Assembly (NCBI GenBank): GCA_964495685.1
Contig: CAZBVQ010000001.1
Location: forward strand, 373,568 to 437,567
Reading direction: 5' to 3'
From: an uncultured Candidatus Saccharibacteria bacterium
GTDB taxonomy: Bacteria; Patescibacteriota; Minisyncoccia; Phycocordibacterales; PALSA-1337
Length of the DNA stretch: 64,000 nucleotides
Shown here: piece after piece, positions 16,028-36,089 of the stretch
Numbering within the stretch: the first letter of the stretch is position 1
Layout: each line of letters begins with the position of its first letter
Made by a program: the position numbers and the translations under genes
The notes under the pieces: generated by a model
Databases searched by the model: none
Told to the model about the DNA's origin: nothing
Seen by the model: only the letters and a program-made list of their open reading frames with translations

Positions 16028-17326
16028 TTAATGGCCCAAAAACGTCCTCGCAATCTCCTCCTCACTACCACTCAATTCTTCGCCGCTCGAGAGTATCTTC
16101 ATGCGCAGTTTGCCATTCTTGACTTCTTCATCACCAATACACATGATACGAGGAATGCCACGCTTATCCGCATTCTTGATCTGGTCACCGACTTTCTTGC
16201 CTGAGAGGTCCACGAAGACATTTATATTCTTGGCCCTGAATGATTGAGCGAGCTCCAGTGCATACGGAGTATTCTGGTCACCGACGACGCAGAGGGCCAC
16301 GTCCGCAGGAGACTCATTCTTGGGAAGTGTGCCGTAGGTCTCCATTAAGTCTCGTGCAATAACATCACCTGCGCCAAAACCGACGGCAGGAACTTTGTCA
16401 TTACCGAAAAGGGAAAGGAGGTCATCGTAGCGTCCACCACCGAAAACAGAACGACGATTGGCTGGATTGAGGTCATAGACTTCGAAAACTACTCCCGTGT
16501 AGTAGTCGAAGCCGCGCATCAGTGTCTGGTCGAAGCGGGCATTGGTGATACCGAGACGCTCCAGGCCAGCGATGACTTCACGTATTTCTTTGAGGCCGAC
16601 ATGCTCCTCGGTAGTTTGTGGTAGGTTCTTGGTGAATTCTTCGAAGTTTTTGGAATTGAGGAGTGTCATGAATTTCCTCGTGTTGTCACCGAGGACTTCC
16701 GTGGCAGCAGCTTCGAACCATTCTGGCTTGACCTTGTCCTTCTTGTCGATGAGTTTGGAAATCTTTTGGGCAGCTTCCTCATTCAAGCAGAAAACATCTC
16801 GTGTCACATAGTTCATGAGCTTGCGGTTGTTGATGCGGATTTCGAAGTCGGTATCCTTGAGGCCATAAGCACGTGTAATATCGTAGGCGATATTGATAGT
16901 CTCGATTTCCGCCGAAATAGACTCGACGCCGAATATGTCGACGTTGAGCTGCCAATGTTCACGGACACGACCGCGTTGAGGTTGTTCGTAACGGAATAGG
17001 TTGGGGATAGAATACCAGCGGACAGGGAAGGTAAGCTCACGCTTGCGGGCAGCGATCATGCGGGCGAGAGTAGGGGTCATCTCAGGACGGAGAGTCACTT
17101 CACGGTCGCCACGGTCAGTGAAGGTGTATGTTTGTTCGTTGATGATCTCTTCACCACTCTTGGCACGATACAAATCGGCGGGTTCCAGAACCGATGCACC
17201 GTATTCTTCATAGCCGTATGACTCGACTGCCTTGCGCCAGATATCGAAGATCTTCTTTTCAGTAGCCATATCGGCAGGGAAGAAATCTCGAACTCCTTTG
17301 TAGGAATCAGTTGAAAGCTTTTTCAT
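16028..17326 (-). CDS. hisS: Histidine--tRNA ligase
   Basis: Class II HisRS motifs (RPEMTP; FRYEQPQRGRVREHWQ; GGGRYD), C-terminal anticodon-binding domain. Confidence 0.9.
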   Translation of the reverse strand: MKKLSTDSYKGVRDFFPADMATEKKIFDIWRKAVESYGYEEYGASVLEPADLYRAKSGEEIINEQTYTFTDRGDREVTLRPEMTPTLARMIAARKRELTFPVRWYSIPNLFRYEQPQRGRVREHWQLNVDIFGVESISAEIETINIAYDITRAYGLKDTDFEIRINNRKLMNYVTRDVFCLNEEAAQKISKLIDKKDKVKPEWFEAAATEVLGDNTRKFMTLLNSKNFEEFTKNLPQTTEEHVGLKEIREVIAGLERLGITNARFDQTLMRGFDYYTGVVFEVYDLNPANRRSVFGGGRYDDLLSLFGNDKVPAVGFGAGDVIARDLMETYGTLPKNESPADVALCVVGDQNTPYALELAQSFRAKNINVFVDLSGKKVGDQIKNADKRGIPRIMCIGDEEVKNGKLRMKILSSGEELSGSEEEIARTFLGH

Positions 17327-17489
17327 GGGGGTATTGTAGCAGATTGTGCCATAAACGTAAGGGCTCTACTCATACCCCTTGACTTTTTCATTATTTCAGT
17401 ATACAATACTGGACGTTATCACTATAAAGAGCCGTACCCTGAATTATGGCCCCATTGAGCCATAAGACTAAGGATACGTTTATCACATT

Positions 17490-18758
17490 ATGAAAAACAT
17501 CATCCGCACAGCTTCATACGTCACCGTGGGCATCATGTCACTCGTGATCGCCTTCGGTATCGTCGTCTCTGCTCCGGCTCAGGCCCATGCAGATTATGGC
17601 TACTATGGTACACCGTCGTACAACTACGACTACTCGTACTATCGTCAGCAGCCTCGTAATGACTATGGTCCGTTGCAAGTATCGTGTTATCCGATGCCTC
17701 TTTCGGCTCGTACCGGTGATTCGGTGACGTGGGTTGCGAATGCGTATGGTGGCAACAACTCATACAACTACACCTGGAGTGGCACGGACGGCCTCAGTGG
17801 TTACGGCTCTTCTATAGTCAAGGCCTACTACTCCAATGGTTCCAAGACCGCCAGTGTGACTGTCACATCAGCTGGTCAGACTATCACCAAGATTTGTGAT
17901 GGCTCAGCAAGCATTTATGGTGACACGAACTATAATTACAACAACTACAATTATAGTTATCCGTATTACACCAGTTACCCGAATTACAACTACAATTCAT
18001 ACTACTCACCGTTGTATGTCACCTGTACGCCAAGTACTACCTATGTCAACAATGGCATGCAAGTAGTCTGGAATGCATATCCGTCAGGCGGCAATGGTTC
18101 ATATACGTATTCATGGACAGGCAGCGACAATCTGTACGGTTCAAGTCAGTCAGTGTATTACACGTATTCGAATCCTGGTGCCAAGACGGCCAATGTGACT
18201 GTCTACTCGACAAACGGTCAAACAGCTACTATCAATTGTGGCACTGTTAACGTCGCTGGTTACTATGGTGCGGTCCCTGTCGTCGTCGGTTCGACCAATG
18301 CTGGTCTCGATGTTGCTTGTTATTCTGATCCTTCGAATGTCCGCGTCAATCAGCCGGTCACTTGGAGGGCAGAAGTTACTGGTGGCGTCGCGCCGTATAC
18401 CTACACATGGACTGGTGCTGATGGCCTTTCAGGTTCTGAGAACACGGTACTCAAGTACTATGCTTCTACGGGAGACAAGAGTGCCATCATCTCGATCAAG
18501 TCCGCTGACGGCAAGACTGCTACTCGCGCATGTAGTACCAGTGTGACGGTTCGCTCTGCGTCTGCGACAGCTCCTGTCCAGCAGACTCAGCAGCCATCTT
18601 CGCAGGTCCAGCCGAATACCAATCAAAATTCAAATGGCCTCTCAGCTGCAGCATTGTTCTCACTCAAGAACGTGCCGTGGGGTTGGGTTGCTATCCTGAT
18701 TATCTTGGTACTCTTTGCGACGGTTGTGTATCTTATCTTCAATCGCCCGAAGATCTAA
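17490..18758 (+). CDS. Cell-surface repeat protein (Tyr/Asn-rich, C-terminal membrane anchor)
   Basis: Signal anchor at the N-terminus. Three repeated modules (YTWSGTDGLSGYGSS / YSWTGSDNLYGSSQS / YTWTGADGLSGSENT), each near Cys pairs. YNYNNYNYSYPYY low-complexity tracts. C-terminal TM plus basic tail (ILIILVLFATVVYLIFNRPKI). Promoter TTGACT-17-TACAAT at 17381-17409. Terminator ACCCCCTGAAATAGGGGGT plus T-run at 18822-18848. Confidence 0.55.
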   Translation: MKNIIRTASYVTVGIMSLVIAFGIVVSAPAQAHADYGYYGTPSYNYDYSYYRQQPRNDYGPLQVSCYPMPLSARTGDSVTWVANAYGGNNSYNYTWSGTDGLSGYGSSIVKAYYSNGSKTASVTVTSAGQTITKICDGSASIYGDTNYNYNNYNYSYPYYTSYPNYNYNSYYSPLYVTCTPSTTYVNNGMQVVWNAYPSGGNGSYTYSWTGSDNLYGSSQSVYYTYSNPGAKTANVTVYSTNGQTATINCGTVNVAGYYGAVPVVVGSTNAGLDVACYSDPSNVRVNQPVTWRAEVTGGVAPYTYTWTGADGLSGSENTVLKYYASTGDKSAIISIKSADGKTATRACSTSVTVRSASATAPVQQTQQPSSQVQPNTNQNSNGLSAAALFSLKNVPWGWVAILIILVLFATVVYLIFNRPKI

Positions 18759-18856
18759 TAGGGTAGAGTGGACTATACGTAGTCCGATGGCGACAATACG
18801 TGAGACTCCAAAATAAATGTTGAAAATACCCCCTGAAATAGGGGGTATTTTTGTGC

Positions 18857-18886
18857 TTGACAAATACATATTAAACATGGTATAAT
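18857..18886 (+). promoter_or_regulatory. Consensus sigma-70 promoter (TTGACA - 18 nt - TATAAT)
   Basis: Exact TTGACA at 18857-18862 and exact TATAAT at 18881-18886 with an 18-nt spacer, about 75 nt upstream of the 18965 ATG. Confidence 0.55.
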
Positions 18887-18964
18887 ATAAAAGTACTACA
18901 AAGAGGTAGTACGTATGTTTTGAAAATTTGGTCAACATGAAAATTTGATTCAGAAAGTCATTTT

Positions 18965-19330
18965 ATGACAAGTTCAGACTTCGTTGGAAATGACTTCGAA
19001 TATGCCTACGCGAAAGCGTTTGGCGGTGAAGTCAGTGGAGGTTTCGATGATGGTGGCAGAGATGTCATCATTCCGAAAATCGGCGGCGTACAGGTGAAAG
19101 CCAGTGCCGACGGAGCCAAGAGTTTCTTGGCTGTCTCCATCAAACGGAACCAATTTATTCCTCTGTGTGTCGGCGAACCCGGCGCACAGCAGGATATGAT
19201 TGAGTCTCTCAAGCGCTTCGGTGCTTGGGTCGGGAACGATATCCCGAATCGCGTGGCATTGCTCACGGGGATTGCCCAAGTGCGTGCCATGATCGAGCAG
19301 GCGAAAGGAGGTACTCGTGTCCGAGCGTAA
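18965..19330 (+). CDS. Small Mrr-cat-like PD-(D/E)xK nuclease domain protein
   Basis: GGFDDGGRDVIIPKIGGVQVKAS matches the restriction-endonuclease Mrr catalytic core pattern (DGG-D ... hydrophobic-Q-x-K). 121 aa. Confidence 0.4.
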   Translation: MTSSDFVGNDFEYAYAKAFGGEVSGGFDDGGRDVIIPKIGGVQVKASADGAKSFLAVSIKRNQFIPLCVGEPGAQQDMIESLKRFGAWVGNDIPNRVALLTGIAQVRAMIEQAKGGTRVRA

Positions 19331-19565
19331 TGGACGACACGAGTCCTTCCTTGATCAACTACTCACTAGTCTTCGTAAGAGGGATGGTGAAGAGGAGATC
19401 GGCAGGCTCAAAAAGGAACTTCAGGGGTTCACTCGGGAAGCGACTTGTCGCGAAGCAATCGTTCAGTTGATTGCCAAGCAGAAGTTGCGGTACCGGCTGG
19501 CGCTCCTCTTGTTGAAACCAACCCTCATCATTCCTTATTTGATACGCATCAAGCGAATCCGGTAG
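19317..19565 (+). CDS. Small helical protein with hydrophobic/basic C-terminal tail (partner of the nuclease gene)
   Basis: ATGA start/stop overlap with the upstream gene. Charged coiled-coil-like N-terminal half, then LALLLLKPTLIIPYLIRIKRIR. Followed by a 10-bp-stem terminator (CACCCCCATCC/GGATGGGGGT) at 19573-19603. Confidence 0.3.
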   Translation: MSERNGRHESFLDQLLTSLRKRDGEEEIGRLKKELQGFTREATCREAIVQLIAKQKLRYRLALLLLKPTLIIPYLIRIKRIR

Positions 19566-19632
19566 GGATCACCCCCATCCAACGAAAGAAGGATGGGGGT
19601 TAAAACATGGTCAATTTTATTTTCTTATTGAG

Positions 19633-21387
19633 CTATCTTCTCTCTCTGATTTCCTCTACCAATTTTTTCACCACCTCATCCACGCTCATCTGCCCGACCT
19701 GTCCCTTGTCTCTACTTTCCAGTGTCACCTTACCAGCCTGAATATCTTTGTCGCCAATGATGATTGTATAAGGCACACGTGCATTCTTGGCGGCGCGTAT
19801 TTTTTTGCCGAAATTGTCATTTGAGTCATAAAAGTCAGAACGAATCATGGCGGCACGGAGCGCCTCGTGGATTTTCTTGGCTTCGTCGGCATGCGCTTCA
19901 GCGACGGGAATAACGGCTACTTGTGTCGGTGCCAGCCAGAGAGGGAAGTTGCCACCGTAGTGTTCTATGAGGAAGCCAATGAAGCGTTCATGAGTACCGA
20001 GTGGTGCACGGTGAATACAAAGAGGTGTCTTGGCGACACCATCTTTGTCAGTATAGGTAAGACCGAATCGAGCTGGTACAGCGAAGTCGACCTGGTTGGT
20101 GGCAAGGGTAAATTCACGACCAATGGCACTCCAGACCTGCACATCAATTTTGGGACCATAGAAAGCGGCTTCGTTGGGAACTTCAATAAAAGGAATTTTT
20201 GAATCCACGAGCACTTTGCGGACCATGTCCTCGGTCTTCTTCCAGAGCGCTGGTTCGTTGACGAACTTCTGGCCCAATTTCCTGGGATCATGAGTCGAGA
20301 AACGCATGACGTACTTGTCGACACCGAAAATCTTGAAATACTGGAGATACATATCATTCACGGCCTTGAATTCATCGGCAAACTGTTCTTCTGTGCAGTA
20401 CATGTGCGCATCATTCATCTGGAGTGTGCGTACGCGCATGAGTCCGAAGAGCTCACCTGATTTCTCGTGACGATAACAGGTGCCGTATTCTGCCAAGCGA
20501 AGTGGTAGGTCGCGATAGCTCTTGGGACGAGCTCCGAAAATCTTGTGGTGATGCGGACAGTTCATGGCTTTCAGATAATATTTGCCGCCCTCGTATTCCA
20601 TCGGAGGATACATGGACTCTTCGTAGTAAGGCAGGTGACCACTCTTCAGGTACATTGATTCCTTGGCGATATGCGGTGTGCGTACACGAACATAGCCCAT
20701 TTTGAATTCAGTCTCTTTTGCCAATTTTTCTAGTTCCTCGACCAAGACTGCACCGTTCGGCAACCAGAGGGGGAGCCCTGGGCCGACATCATCATCAAAT
20801 TCGAAGAGGTCGAGCTCTTTGCCTAGCTTGCGGTGATCGCGCTTCTCAGCTTCTTTCATCATAGTTTCGTACTCGTCTAGGCCGGGCCTGGACTCGAACG
20901 CCAGGCCGTAGATACGCGTCAGTTGCGCGTTCTCCTCACTTCCACGCCAGTAGGCGCCAGCGAGTCGATTGAGCTTGAAACAATCAGATGGGATATCCTT
21001 TGCGGGATTTTCGATATGGCCACCACGGCAGAGGTCAGTAAATTTGCCCATAGTGTAGAAGGTAATTTTTTCACCCTTCTCAGCAATCTCATTGATGAGC
21101 TCTATCTTGTACGGATTGGTCTTGAAATGCTCCAGAGCTTCTTCTTTGCTGACTTCCTTGTGCTCGACTGATTTCCATGAAGGTAGAAGTTTGCGCATTT
21201 TCTTTTCGATATCCTTGAGGTCTTTCTCAACGATAGGAGTCTTGAATTCGAAGTCGTAATAAAAACCGTTATCGATGGCAGGACCGATGGTCGGCTTGGT
21301 GTCGGGATGTAGTTCAAGTACCGCCGCGGCCAAGAGGTGGGCGAGTGTGTGACGGAGATGGGGGAGGTGGTCGTTTGTTGGATTCAT
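19633..21387 (-). CDS. thrS: Threonine--tRNA ligase (short form lacking the N-terminal TGS domain)
   Basis: Class II core plus N2 editing-domain HxxxH region (LRHTLAHLLAAAV), motifs 2/3, C-terminal anticodon-binding domain. Confidence 0.9.
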   Translation of the reverse strand: MNPTNDHLPHLRHTLAHLLAAAVLELHPDTKPTIGPAIDNGFYYDFEFKTPIVEKDLKDIEKKMRKLLPSWKSVEHKEVSKEEALEHFKTNPYKIELINEIAEKGEKITFYTMGKFTDLCRGGHIENPAKDIPSDCFKLNRLAGAYWRGSEENAQLTRIYGLAFESRPGLDEYETMMKEAEKRDHRKLGKELDLFEFDDDVGPGLPLWLPNGAVLVEELEKLAKETEFKMGYVRVRTPHIAKESMYLKSGHLPYYEESMYPPMEYEGGKYYLKAMNCPHHHKIFGARPKSYRDLPLRLAEYGTCYRHEKSGELFGLMRVRTLQMNDAHMYCTEEQFADEFKAVNDMYLQYFKIFGVDKYVMRFSTHDPRKLGQKFVNEPALWKKTEDMVRKVLVDSKIPFIEVPNEAAFYGPKIDVQVWSAIGREFTLATNQVDFAVPARFGLTYTDKDGVAKTPLCIHRAPLGTHERFIGFLIEHYGGNFPLWLAPTQVAVIPVAEAHADEAKKIHEALRAAMIRSDFYDSNDNFGKKIRAAKNARVPYTIIIGDKDIQAGKVTLESRDKGQVGQMSVDEVVKKLVEEIRERR

Positions 21388-35619: not shown

Positions 35620-35984
35620 TGGCTCCGCGGCCAGGGATCGAACCTGGGACATCCTCGTTACGTTTGGTCTCCTATTACTAGGGGTACGGACTATATCATC
35701 TCCAATGAAACTCGTGTCAAAGCTTCATTACGGAGTAAGGCGCTTCCCAGAGCATATTGCTCCAGTACTCCCACAAGGGGATAGTCTCTGAACCTTTCCC
35801 TCACATGGATTCTTGCTATGTCATCGGTGTACATAACAAAGATTCATGTGAGGGACTTGGCTGCTGATTGCCCACATTTGCATGTTGGGGTTTCCGGCAA
35901 TTCACCTTATTTTTCAGCCTAAGTTTCCTTAGGAAGCTGCTATTCTCTAACAGCGAGGCGCTCTACCGGCTGAGCTACCGCGGA
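35620..35984 (-). tRNA. tRNA-Asn (anticodon GUU) interrupted by a 289-nt group I intron
   Basis: 5' exon at plus 35950-35984 gives TCCGCGG-TA-GCTC-AGCCGGTA-GAGC-G-CCTCG-CTGT. 3' exon at plus 35620-35660 gives TAA-CGAGG-ATGTC-CCAGG-TTCGATC-CCTGG-CCGCGGA-G-CCA. Spliced cloverleaf is canonical with anticodon loop CUGUUAA. Intron (plus 35661-35949) follows U35 and ends in G. P1 is GCTGT/GCAGC with U-G, P2 is CCTAAG-GAAA-CTTAGG. Core elements P AATTGCCGGAAA, Q AATCAGCAGC, R GTTCAGAGACTA and S GATATAGTCC are all present. Confidence 0.8.
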
Positions 35985-36089
35985 ATATGTTGTGTAAGAA
36001 CGTACGTAATTCCATGAAGAATTACGTCACAAAATGTATCATATCTCGCGCCGTAAATCAAAACCGAAGTGACAAATCTGTAGTATAGT

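Follow-up and report, generated by a model that had tools for sequence, protein, structure and literature searches.

We analysed a stretch of 64,000 nucleotides (nt) from contig CAZBVQ010000001.1 of an uncultured Candidatus Saccharibacteria bacterium (hereafter the window) and describe here a pair of small genes, open reading frames 1 and 2 (ORF1 and ORF2), that lies between a gene for a PKD-like surface protein and thrS (Table 1). ORF1 is a candidate nuclease with the catalytic signature of the Mrr family, and ORF2 is a small helical partner protein of about 80 amino acids (aa). Both ORFs have conserved homologues and their promoter recurs at orthologous loci, so the operon is not a product of chance; the two genes are a genuine operon and form a single transcription unit.

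A two-gene operon between a surface-protein gene and thrS

An initial annotation of this DNA had described a consensus TTGACA-18-TATAAT promoter ahead of the pair, and the match is indeed complete. Promoters of this kind are frequent at related loci (numbered with an L). Enough upstream sequence was available at 42 distinct loci; at 28 of these the pair is preceded by a sigma-70 promoter that agrees with the consensus in at least 10 of 12 positions, and at 24 of the 28 the agreement is at least 11. In orthologues, the promoter often lies just 6–25 nt from the estimated start. Within the 64 kb, promoters with at most one mismatch at 18-nt spacing were found twice, against 0.39 expected by chance. 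The second is also perfect, has a similar spacer (TATATAGTGTG ahead of the −10 box) and drives the gene of a secreted 407-aa protein. It suggests that strong promoters in this organism share an architecture; because there are only two such promoters in 64 kb, the organism seems to keep them for a few strongly expressed genes.

The flanking genes are those named in the initial annotation, which had also placed terminator hairpins on both sides of the module. Upstream this is correct: a stem (18830–18845) followed by TATTTTTGTG forms a canonical terminator that insulates the 5′ side. Downstream, the G+C-rich hairpin has no T-tract on either strand, and a terminator scan made no call there; it is possibly a terminator common to ORF2 and thrS. 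The stem-loop close to the predicted 5′ end of the transcript may stabilize the mRNA at that end, and hairpins of different sequence occupy, by eye, the equivalent position in four relatives (L009, L011, L012 and L013). Folding of the leader as a whole is not unusually stable (z = −1.3), with nothing significant beyond the 5′ hairpin, and an Rfam scan of the leader returned no element.

ORF2 is 82 aa long, as first described. It does not begin at the ATGA overlap that had been proposed: the ATG of the ‘TAATG’ at the ORF1 stop (19330) lies in the third frame, and the start is a GTG served by a Shine–Dalgarno sequence inside ORF1. As the two ORFs overlap by 14 nt, translational coupling is likely. 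In orthologous pairs the overlap is 14 nt or 8 nt, with ATG starts. L001 lacks ORF2 but keeps a remnant of the Shine–Dalgarno sequence, GAAAGGAGGTAC, after ORF1.

The leader also contains a TTTGA(A/C)AA box, which recurs 20–60 nt downstream of the −10 box in L004, L011, L013, L043, L045 and the ORF3 promoters (ORF3 is described below) and stands directly before the start codon in some loci. We considered this box as an operator and did not retain the idea: the exact octamer occurs 7 times in the window against 3.5 expected, and this enrichment is not significant.

Table 1. Features of the ORF1–ORF2 locus, of the rest of the window and of related loci (positions are those of the window unless a locus is named)
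Feature	Position	Strand	Description
PKD-like protein gene	17490–18758	+	Upstream flank; 422 aa, signal peptide, C-terminal membrane anchor
Intrinsic terminator of PKD-like gene	18830–18855	+	Stem-loop CCCCTGAAATAGGGGG, then TATTTTTGTG
Sigma-70 promoter	18857–18886	+	TTGACA-18 nt-TATAAT; consensus 12/12, TG extended −10
7-bp stem-loop	18893–18912	+	At or near predicted transcript 5′ end
TTTGA(A/C)AA box	18919–18926		In leader
ORF1	18965–19330	+	121 aa; Mrr-type PD-(D/E)xK nuclease candidate
Shine–Dalgarno for ORF2	19304–19311	+	AAAGGAGG; within ORF1 3′ end, 5 nt ahead of GTG
ORF2	19317–19565	+	82 aa; GTG start at 19317, 14-nt overlap with ORF1
G+C-rich hairpin	19571–19600		9–10-bp stem, 10-nt loop; between convergent ORF2 and thrS, read from the sequence
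thrS	19633–21387	−	Downstream flank, convergent
Second perfect promoter	2097–2126	−	TTGACA-18-TATAAT
Secreted-protein gene	801–2024	−	407 aa; driven by promoter 2097–2126
Group I intron	35668–35959	−	Full-length; RF00028, 81 bits
Flanks of intron-split tRNA	about 35620–35667 and 35960–35995
ORF3 (outside the window)	L001 4812–4970; L009 1884–2054; L013 4761–4925; L040 3672–3821; L047 3772–3933
Variable-slot genes (outside the window)	L013 4957–5472 and 5453–5683; L009 2200–2400		Between the pair and thrS
ORF1–ORF2 chimera	L056 1808–2347		179 aa
ORF2 homologue with unrelated ORF	L067 5986–6580		Unrelated ORF of 99–111 aa

The ORF1 family and its Mrr-like signature

ORF1 contains GGFDDGGRDVIIPKIGGVQVKAS, exactly as quoted in the initial annotation, which had likened this core to the catalytic domain of Mrr. 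A word-indexed search of 5.8 billion proteins yielded 7 clusters, and an exhaustive profile search yielded 60 representatives at 50% identity, 45 of them with E <= 1e-10. All are short (63–220 aa) with one exception of 733 aa (P0062). The named members come from Candidatus Taylorbacteria and Parcubacteria-group assemblies, where every one is labelled hypothetical.

Smith et al. (PMC2790908) define the nucleases of the Mrr family by three motifs. Motif I is a glutamate (E172 in Mrr); motif II combines the catalytic aspartate D203 with a second aspartate, D199, four residues upstream and linked to it through glycine, this second aspartate being 100% conserved in Mrr-family enzymes and unseen in other subgroups of the superfamily; and motif III is Q-x-K (Q219 and K221), with glutamine in place of the usual acidic residue, in all Mrr-like and LlaGI-like enzymes (PMC2790908). 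All three elements are present in ORF1. We counted conservation in 56 aligned family members: E12 (motif I, corresponding to E172 of E. coli Mrr) is found in 48 and D29 (motif II, D199) in 53, and G31 (G201), the catalytic D33 of motif II (D203) and both Q43 and K45 of motif III (Q219 and K221) are invariant (56/56). The spacing of D29-G-G-R-D33 is identical to that of D199-G-G-I-D203 in Mrr, and Q43-V-K45 also follows Mrr.

Profile–profile comparison points the same way. With hhalign, the ORF1 family (A2) matched an alignment of 10 Mrr catalytic domains (E. coli mrr and nine plasmid genes) with a probability of 71.9% (P = 3.4e-5, score 34), far above the controls: the reversed Mrr alignment gave 0.3%, 40 column shuffles of it gave 5% or less, and the ORF2 family gave 0.1% against the same alignment. 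A relaxed alignment remains collinear across 113 columns. Other nuclease families scored lower, with 0.8% for YraN, 0.6% for RmuC and 0.2% for the UvrD-PDDEXK_1 helicase; these templates comprise one or two sequences, so the fairest Mrr figure to place beside them is the 11.5% obtained with E. coli Mrr as a single sequence. In the PDB, the D...VQVKSS segment of ORF1 aligned with I-Ssp6803I (2OST), a PD-(D/E)xK homing endonuclease, at a non-significant E = 0.99. Apart from this, the ORF1 profiles matched only isoflavone reductase in the PDB (E of about 0.2), which we rejected.

An AlphaFold2 model of ORF1 built on the 56-sequence alignment reached a predicted local distance difference test score (pLDDT) of 84.7, and the five models ranged from 80 to 85. 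It places E12 on the first helix (residues 4–19), with D33 opening one strand and QVK in the strand that follows (40–45). A first model from a shallower alignment had the order alpha-beta-beta-beta-alpha-beta-alpha-beta-alpha, the first strand of which is unresolved in the deeper model. From these comparisons, ORF1 is probably a very divergent, minimal Mrr-type nuclease, a view that we hold with reasonable confidence, although as a member of PF04471 it is at most a candidate. The resemblance to the Mrr core that the initial annotation noticed extends to the three signature motifs across the family.

The long exception, P0062 (from a 61.8-kb JGI/Logan contig), carries the ORF1-type domain at its C terminus (residues 596–696), behind an Ala/Gly-rich N-terminal region that is membrane-spanning in appearance and contains no Pfam domain. 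The C terminus of long proteins is where polymorphic toxins carry their toxin domains, and the architecture of P0062 is reminiscent of these proteins.

A fast-evolving and exchangeable partner

An initial search with ORF2 returned just two matches, 100% and 89% identical, so that the gene at first looked like an orphan. ORF1 orthologues are followed by ORFs of 84–85 aa, with about 41% identity to ORF2, that likewise overlap ORF1. A profile built from these ORFs gathered 22 clusters of proteins of 72–118 aa, all of them unannotated. Conserved motifs are RDG, RE..(C/V)Q and a C-terminal YP.LI.PYL.RI(K/R), and the layout is that given in the initial annotation, with a charged N-terminal half and a hydrophobic, arginine-rich tail. 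Pfam gave no consistent match for 28 ORF2 relatives (a stray AbiEi_4 match appeared in 1 of the 28, at E = 0.077), and ORF2 resembles no DNA-binding Pfam family. Two further candidates were set aside. Matches of the ORF2 profile to designed helical-repeat proteins (5h7c and others) are compositional, arising from repeated charged helices, and a detached N-terminal domain of Mrr received 0.3% in hhalign.

To follow the pairing, we retrieved 48 metagenome loci with an ORF1 sub-alignment and scanned all loci with local hidden Markov models, counting as distinct loci the 48 ORF1 clusters merged at 90% identity. An ORF2 relative adjoins ORF1 in 38 of the 48, in either gene order: ORF2 alone in 36 clusters, and ORF2 together with ORF3, a member of an unrelated family, in 2. 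Another 4 clusters have only ORF3, 1 with complete flanks has neither (L004/L015), and in 5 the contig ends and the locus is not classifiable. ORF1 followed by ORF2 is the usual order, with overlaps of 8–14 nt where starts could be read directly in close relatives. The reverse order occurs in L031, L035, L041, L049, L052/53, L061/65, L066 and L068, where the genes overlap by as much as 4 nt or lie as far as 51 nt apart. The two genes stay neighbours even when their order is inverted, which is good evidence of a functional link, and the neighbourhood survey supports the functional pairing that had been suggested from the window alone.

ORF3 proteins have 49–56 aa and the pattern ..LARIxIHxLA..SWxRAxAGIxREL. 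In loci that lack ORF2, ORF3 occupies the interval from the promoter to ORF1. L009 and L013 carry it after ORF2, where a near-identical duplicate of the module promoter and leader precedes it.

Within the same genome pairs, ORF2 is about 41% identical and ORF1 66–68%, and ORF2 is thus the faster-evolving gene. A near-identical strain (L005; Logan DRR274959) differs from the window by 15 substitutions in 135 nt (19313–19447), a segment covering the first 44 codons of ORF2 with 8 nonsynonymous and 6 synonymous changes; the two are identical over the 2.4 kb before it (16894–19312) and the roughly 350 nt after it (19448–19799). On this sequence comparison, the region is a patchwork left by recombination, and the N-terminal half of ORF2 is a hot spot. 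Ratios of nonsynonymous to synonymous substitution rates between close strains are uninformative, with one difference in ORF1 and an ORF2 signal dominated by the recombination-like patch. Beyond 19800, thrS is strongly diverged between the same strains (synonymous divergence 0.61).

Two unusual loci stand apart. In L056, an apparent ORF1–ORF2 fusion was considered as Rosetta-stone evidence and rejected: an in-frame deletion has taken away the final strand and helix of ORF1 and joins ORF1 at about residue 103 (..LKTY) to residue 3 of ORF2, on a contig with 5x coverage. The chimera probably reflects a degenerate copy or an artefact of assembly. In L067, the gene after an ORF2 homologue is not ORF1 but an unrelated ORF, in a setting of PP2C phosphatase, AAA ATPase and radical-SAM genes.

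Genomic context and inheritance

In a Taylorbacteria-like clade the gene order is surface protein, ORF1 (with or without ORF2) and convergent thrS, and the thrS neighbour is kept even where thrS itself is only 48–54% identical (L021, L027, L029, L033 and L055). Persistence of this neighbour over deep divergence argues for vertical inheritance. A second conserved context is beside the HU gene (L065 and L068), and other subgroups lie near genes for S12, S7 and EF-G or near those for RNase Y, ClpP and trigger factor. Overall the neighbours include thrS, hisS, RmuC, HU, RNase Y, ribosomal proteins and EF-G. Among neighbours with Pfam annotations we saw no integrase, transposase or defence genes, scans of viral contigs found no relatives, and ORF1 is present once within the window. 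The initial annotation had likened the module to toxin–antitoxin, abortive-infection or minimal defence systems; we found no positive evidence for that idea, as PADLOC matched neither protein of the window, viral contigs held no relatives and the neighbours are housekeeping genes and not defence islands. In some relatives the interval between the pair and thrS is a variable slot that holds orphan genes of 171, 76 and 66 aa, for which Pfam gave no match.

A proposed partner-controlled nuclease and its alternatives

Our tentative reading, to which we give somewhat less than even weight, is that the pair consists of a minimal Mrr-type nuclease, passed on vertically, and a small, exchangeable partner that controls it. 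The near-consensus promoter would produce one transcript encoding two translationally coupled small proteins. ORF1 would be a minimal (110–130 aa), stand-alone enzyme with a PD-(D/E)xK fold that cuts phosphodiester bonds, with a predicted active site to which helix 1 contributes the glutamate, strand 2 the D-x-G-x-D and strand 3 the Q-x-K. Its cofactor is probably Mg2+ and its substrate probably DNA. We infer that ORF2 binds ORF1 and controls it, and not the reverse, most likely as a cognate inhibitor or regulator of the kind found in toxin–antitoxin and toxin–immunity pairs; a targeting adaptor seems less likely. In some lineages the unrelated ORF3, of about 50 aa, may act instead of ORF2 or besides it, and the module would pass vertically at fixed sites in Parcubacteria chromosomes and not move between genomes. 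Exchange of the partner, the faster evolution of ORF2 and the position of the ORF1-type domain in P0062 favour an inhibitor-like partner, whereas the intact, partnerless ORF1 in L004 and the vertical inheritance at a fixed position disfavour it.

Several observations weigh against this reading. At the level of the enzyme, the Mrr match covers about 28 core columns at just 72% and drops to the low single-sequence value given above, and Pfam Mrr_cat (PF04471) matched none of the 56 ORF1 members at E <= 1. Pfam, NCBIfam, PADLOC and PHROGs gave no match for ORF1 or ORF2 of the window, nor did Pfam, NCBIfam or PADLOC give a consistent one for the 56 ORF1 relatives. A Foldseek search of the ORF1 model against the PDB found no significant fold match (best E = 0.26, TM-score below 0.3), and the residue preceding the catalytic aspartate is mostly lysine or arginine in ORF1 and hydrophobic in Mrr. 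At the level of the pair, the L001 group, L040, L047/48 and L004 all have an ORF1 with intact motifs but no ORF2, and L004 lacks ORF3 as well. Retention of an intact ORF1 in these loci makes ORF2 unlikely to be an indispensable antitoxin and disfavours a simple toxin with an essential antitoxin. The fixed position, the single copy in the window and the housekeeping neighbours are, moreover, atypical for toxin–antitoxin or defence genes.

Those same contextual features would be expected if the pair were a two-subunit housekeeping nuclease, expressed constitutively at a high level and serving lineage-specific genome maintenance or nucleic-acid processing in Parcubacteria. ORF1 might then be a structure-specific endonuclease, a resolvase analogue or an RNA-processing enzyme, and ORF2 a structural or substrate-binding subunit in place of an inhibitor. 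Retention beside thrS across deep divergence, the second context at HU, the ribosomal, RNase Y, ClpP and trigger-factor neighbours, the near-consensus promoter at most loci, the 5′ hairpin of the window and of several close relatives, the single copy in the window and the lack of integrases and transposases among Pfam-annotated neighbours all agree with such a role. Genomes of about 1 Mb, however, give almost every gene housekeeping neighbours, so context says little; the family is small, with some 60 clusters at 50% identity, and its named members are all from Parcubacteria, which argues against a core function of the Candidate Phyla Radiation (CPR); and loss of ORF2 or its replacement by ORF3 while ORF1 is kept, together with the much faster evolution of ORF2, is unusual for an obligate subunit. 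On balance we consider a housekeeping role unlikely, at perhaps one chance in four. Less probable still is a split type IV (Mrr-like) restriction or anti-phage module, in which ORF1 would cleave and ORF2 or ORF3 would recognize DNA or act as a sensor, ORF2 standing in for the N-terminal winged-helix domain of classical Mrr. The Mrr-type motifs of ORF1 would suit such a module, loci with ORF2 ahead of ORF1 mirror the order of binding domain and nuclease in Mrr, and both the exchangeable partner and the clustered allelic differences in ORF2 would be in keeping with a target recognition that diversifies; Mrr-like nuclease domains have also been reported, to judge from the titles of the publications, as effectors in prokaryotic Argonaute-associated defence. 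Yet ORF2 resembles neither the Mrr N-terminal region nor any DNA-binding Pfam family, PADLOC recognized neither protein of the window and nothing consistent among the 56 ORF1 members, defence genes are lacking among Pfam-annotated neighbours, no relatives were seen on viral contigs, and in L004 ORF1 has no partner.

It is about equally improbable that ORF1 is not a nuclease, its motifs being convergent, and that the pair forms a lineage-specific complex, for example one that binds nucleotides or other ligands through a Rossmann-like or flavodoxin-like alpha/beta fold. This would account for the lack of a significant fold match and of any match in the HMM libraries, and for two strongly conserved segments of ORF1, FIPxxVGEPG and GAWVG, that have no counterpart in Mrr. 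Against it, five or six residues fit the Mrr motifs in order, in spacing and in the expected secondary-structure elements, the hhalign score lies far above those of shuffled, reversed and other-family controls, and in the 2OST match this motif lines up with that of a proven PD-(D/E)xK endonuclease.

CPR (Patescibacteria) genomes are tiny and rich in unannotated genes. The pair is one among many unannotated CPR gene pairs, yet it makes a clean and testable module with a predicted function. Held beside thrS over deep divergence and strongly promoted, it is probably useful to the cells. There is some chance, which we would put at less than one in two and nearer to one in three, that these genes represent an undescribed class of nuclease module restricted to Parcubacteria, with the smallest known Mrr-type endonuclease (about 110–120 aa), interchangeable miniature partners, fixed chromosomal sites and strong expression. 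Such a class could be a domesticated system of the toxin–antitoxin or immunity type or a lineage-specific genome-maintenance enzyme, and in that case the hot spot of allelic change in ORF2 would be a trace of continuing co-evolution at the partner interface. An active ORF1 would define a lower bound on size for the Mrr-type active site and offer a compact, easily tested, partner-regulated nuclease, and exchange between ORF2 and ORF3 would amount to a natural experiment in the control of a nuclease by small proteins. Both families could enter Pfam and the defence and toxin–antitoxin catalogues, in which they are now invisible.

Relation to described systems

The predicted secondary-structure elements of ORF1 are collinear with those of the Mrr family (EcoKMrr, the LlaGI-type Type ISP enzymes and PF04471). 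Unlike these enzymes, ORF1 is a bare core of about 110–130 aa with neither an N-terminal winged-helix DNA-binding domain nor a translocase; the ‘TTS.FT’ segment of Mrr is replaced by FIPxxVGEPG; a separate small gene accompanies it (L004 excepted); and its named members all belong to Parcubacteria. I-Ssp6803I is likewise a small, stand-alone PD-(D/E)xK protein and shares the D...VQVKSS core, but its gene lies within a group I intron, whereas that of ORF1 is free-standing and paired. YraN (UPF0102) and Hjc-type proteins also have about 120–130 aa and a stand-alone core with D...(E/Q)VK, and YraN aligns with ORF1 on the same two motifs. These families have neither the combined D-x-G-x-D and Q-x-K signature nor a conserved small partner, and YraN is present as a separate gene on two contigs that carry the pair (L065 and L068).

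Type II toxin–antitoxin systems share with the pair two small, overlapping, co-transcribed and linked genes behind a strong promoter, the existence of both gene orders, a faster-evolving and exchangeable partner and occasional ‘orphan’ components. They differ in that the pair has no known toxin or antitoxin domain and no recognizable DNA-binding antitoxin, sits at a fixed chromosomal position with vertical inheritance, and includes a putative toxin that persists without its partner. Polymorphic toxins with a restriction-endonuclease fold and downstream immunity genes (for example CdiA-CT/CdiI of E. coli EC869 and Burkholderia pseudomallei) are among the closest known systems, in that the small ORF2 gene lies directly downstream of ORF1 in most loci. 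ORF1, in contrast, stands alone and is not the C-terminal domain of a large protein (except in P0062, 1 of 60), and the reversed order of about eight ORF1/ORF2 clusters is not typical for immunity genes. As to known defence systems, 56 ORF1 relatives gave two stray PADLOC matches at E = 0.04.

In agreement with the initial annotation, which had recognized no described counterpart, none of the libraries or literature examined describes the pair, and nothing relevant was among the top results for publications combining Mrr with CPR. Four features are new: ORF1 is minimal and stands alone, it comes with one or more small partners, its named members are confined to Parcubacteria, and its chromosomal position is fixed.

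A group I intron elsewhere in the window

A full-length group I intron lies 16 kb from ORF1, where it interrupts the anticodon loop of a tRNA gene. Within the intron there is no ORF of at least 90 aa as a candidate gene for a homing endonuclease. When the tRNA is spliced by hand, its loop reads CTGTTAA, which makes tRNA-Asn(GUU) the most likely identity, with an ARAGORN call that depends on the junction chosen.

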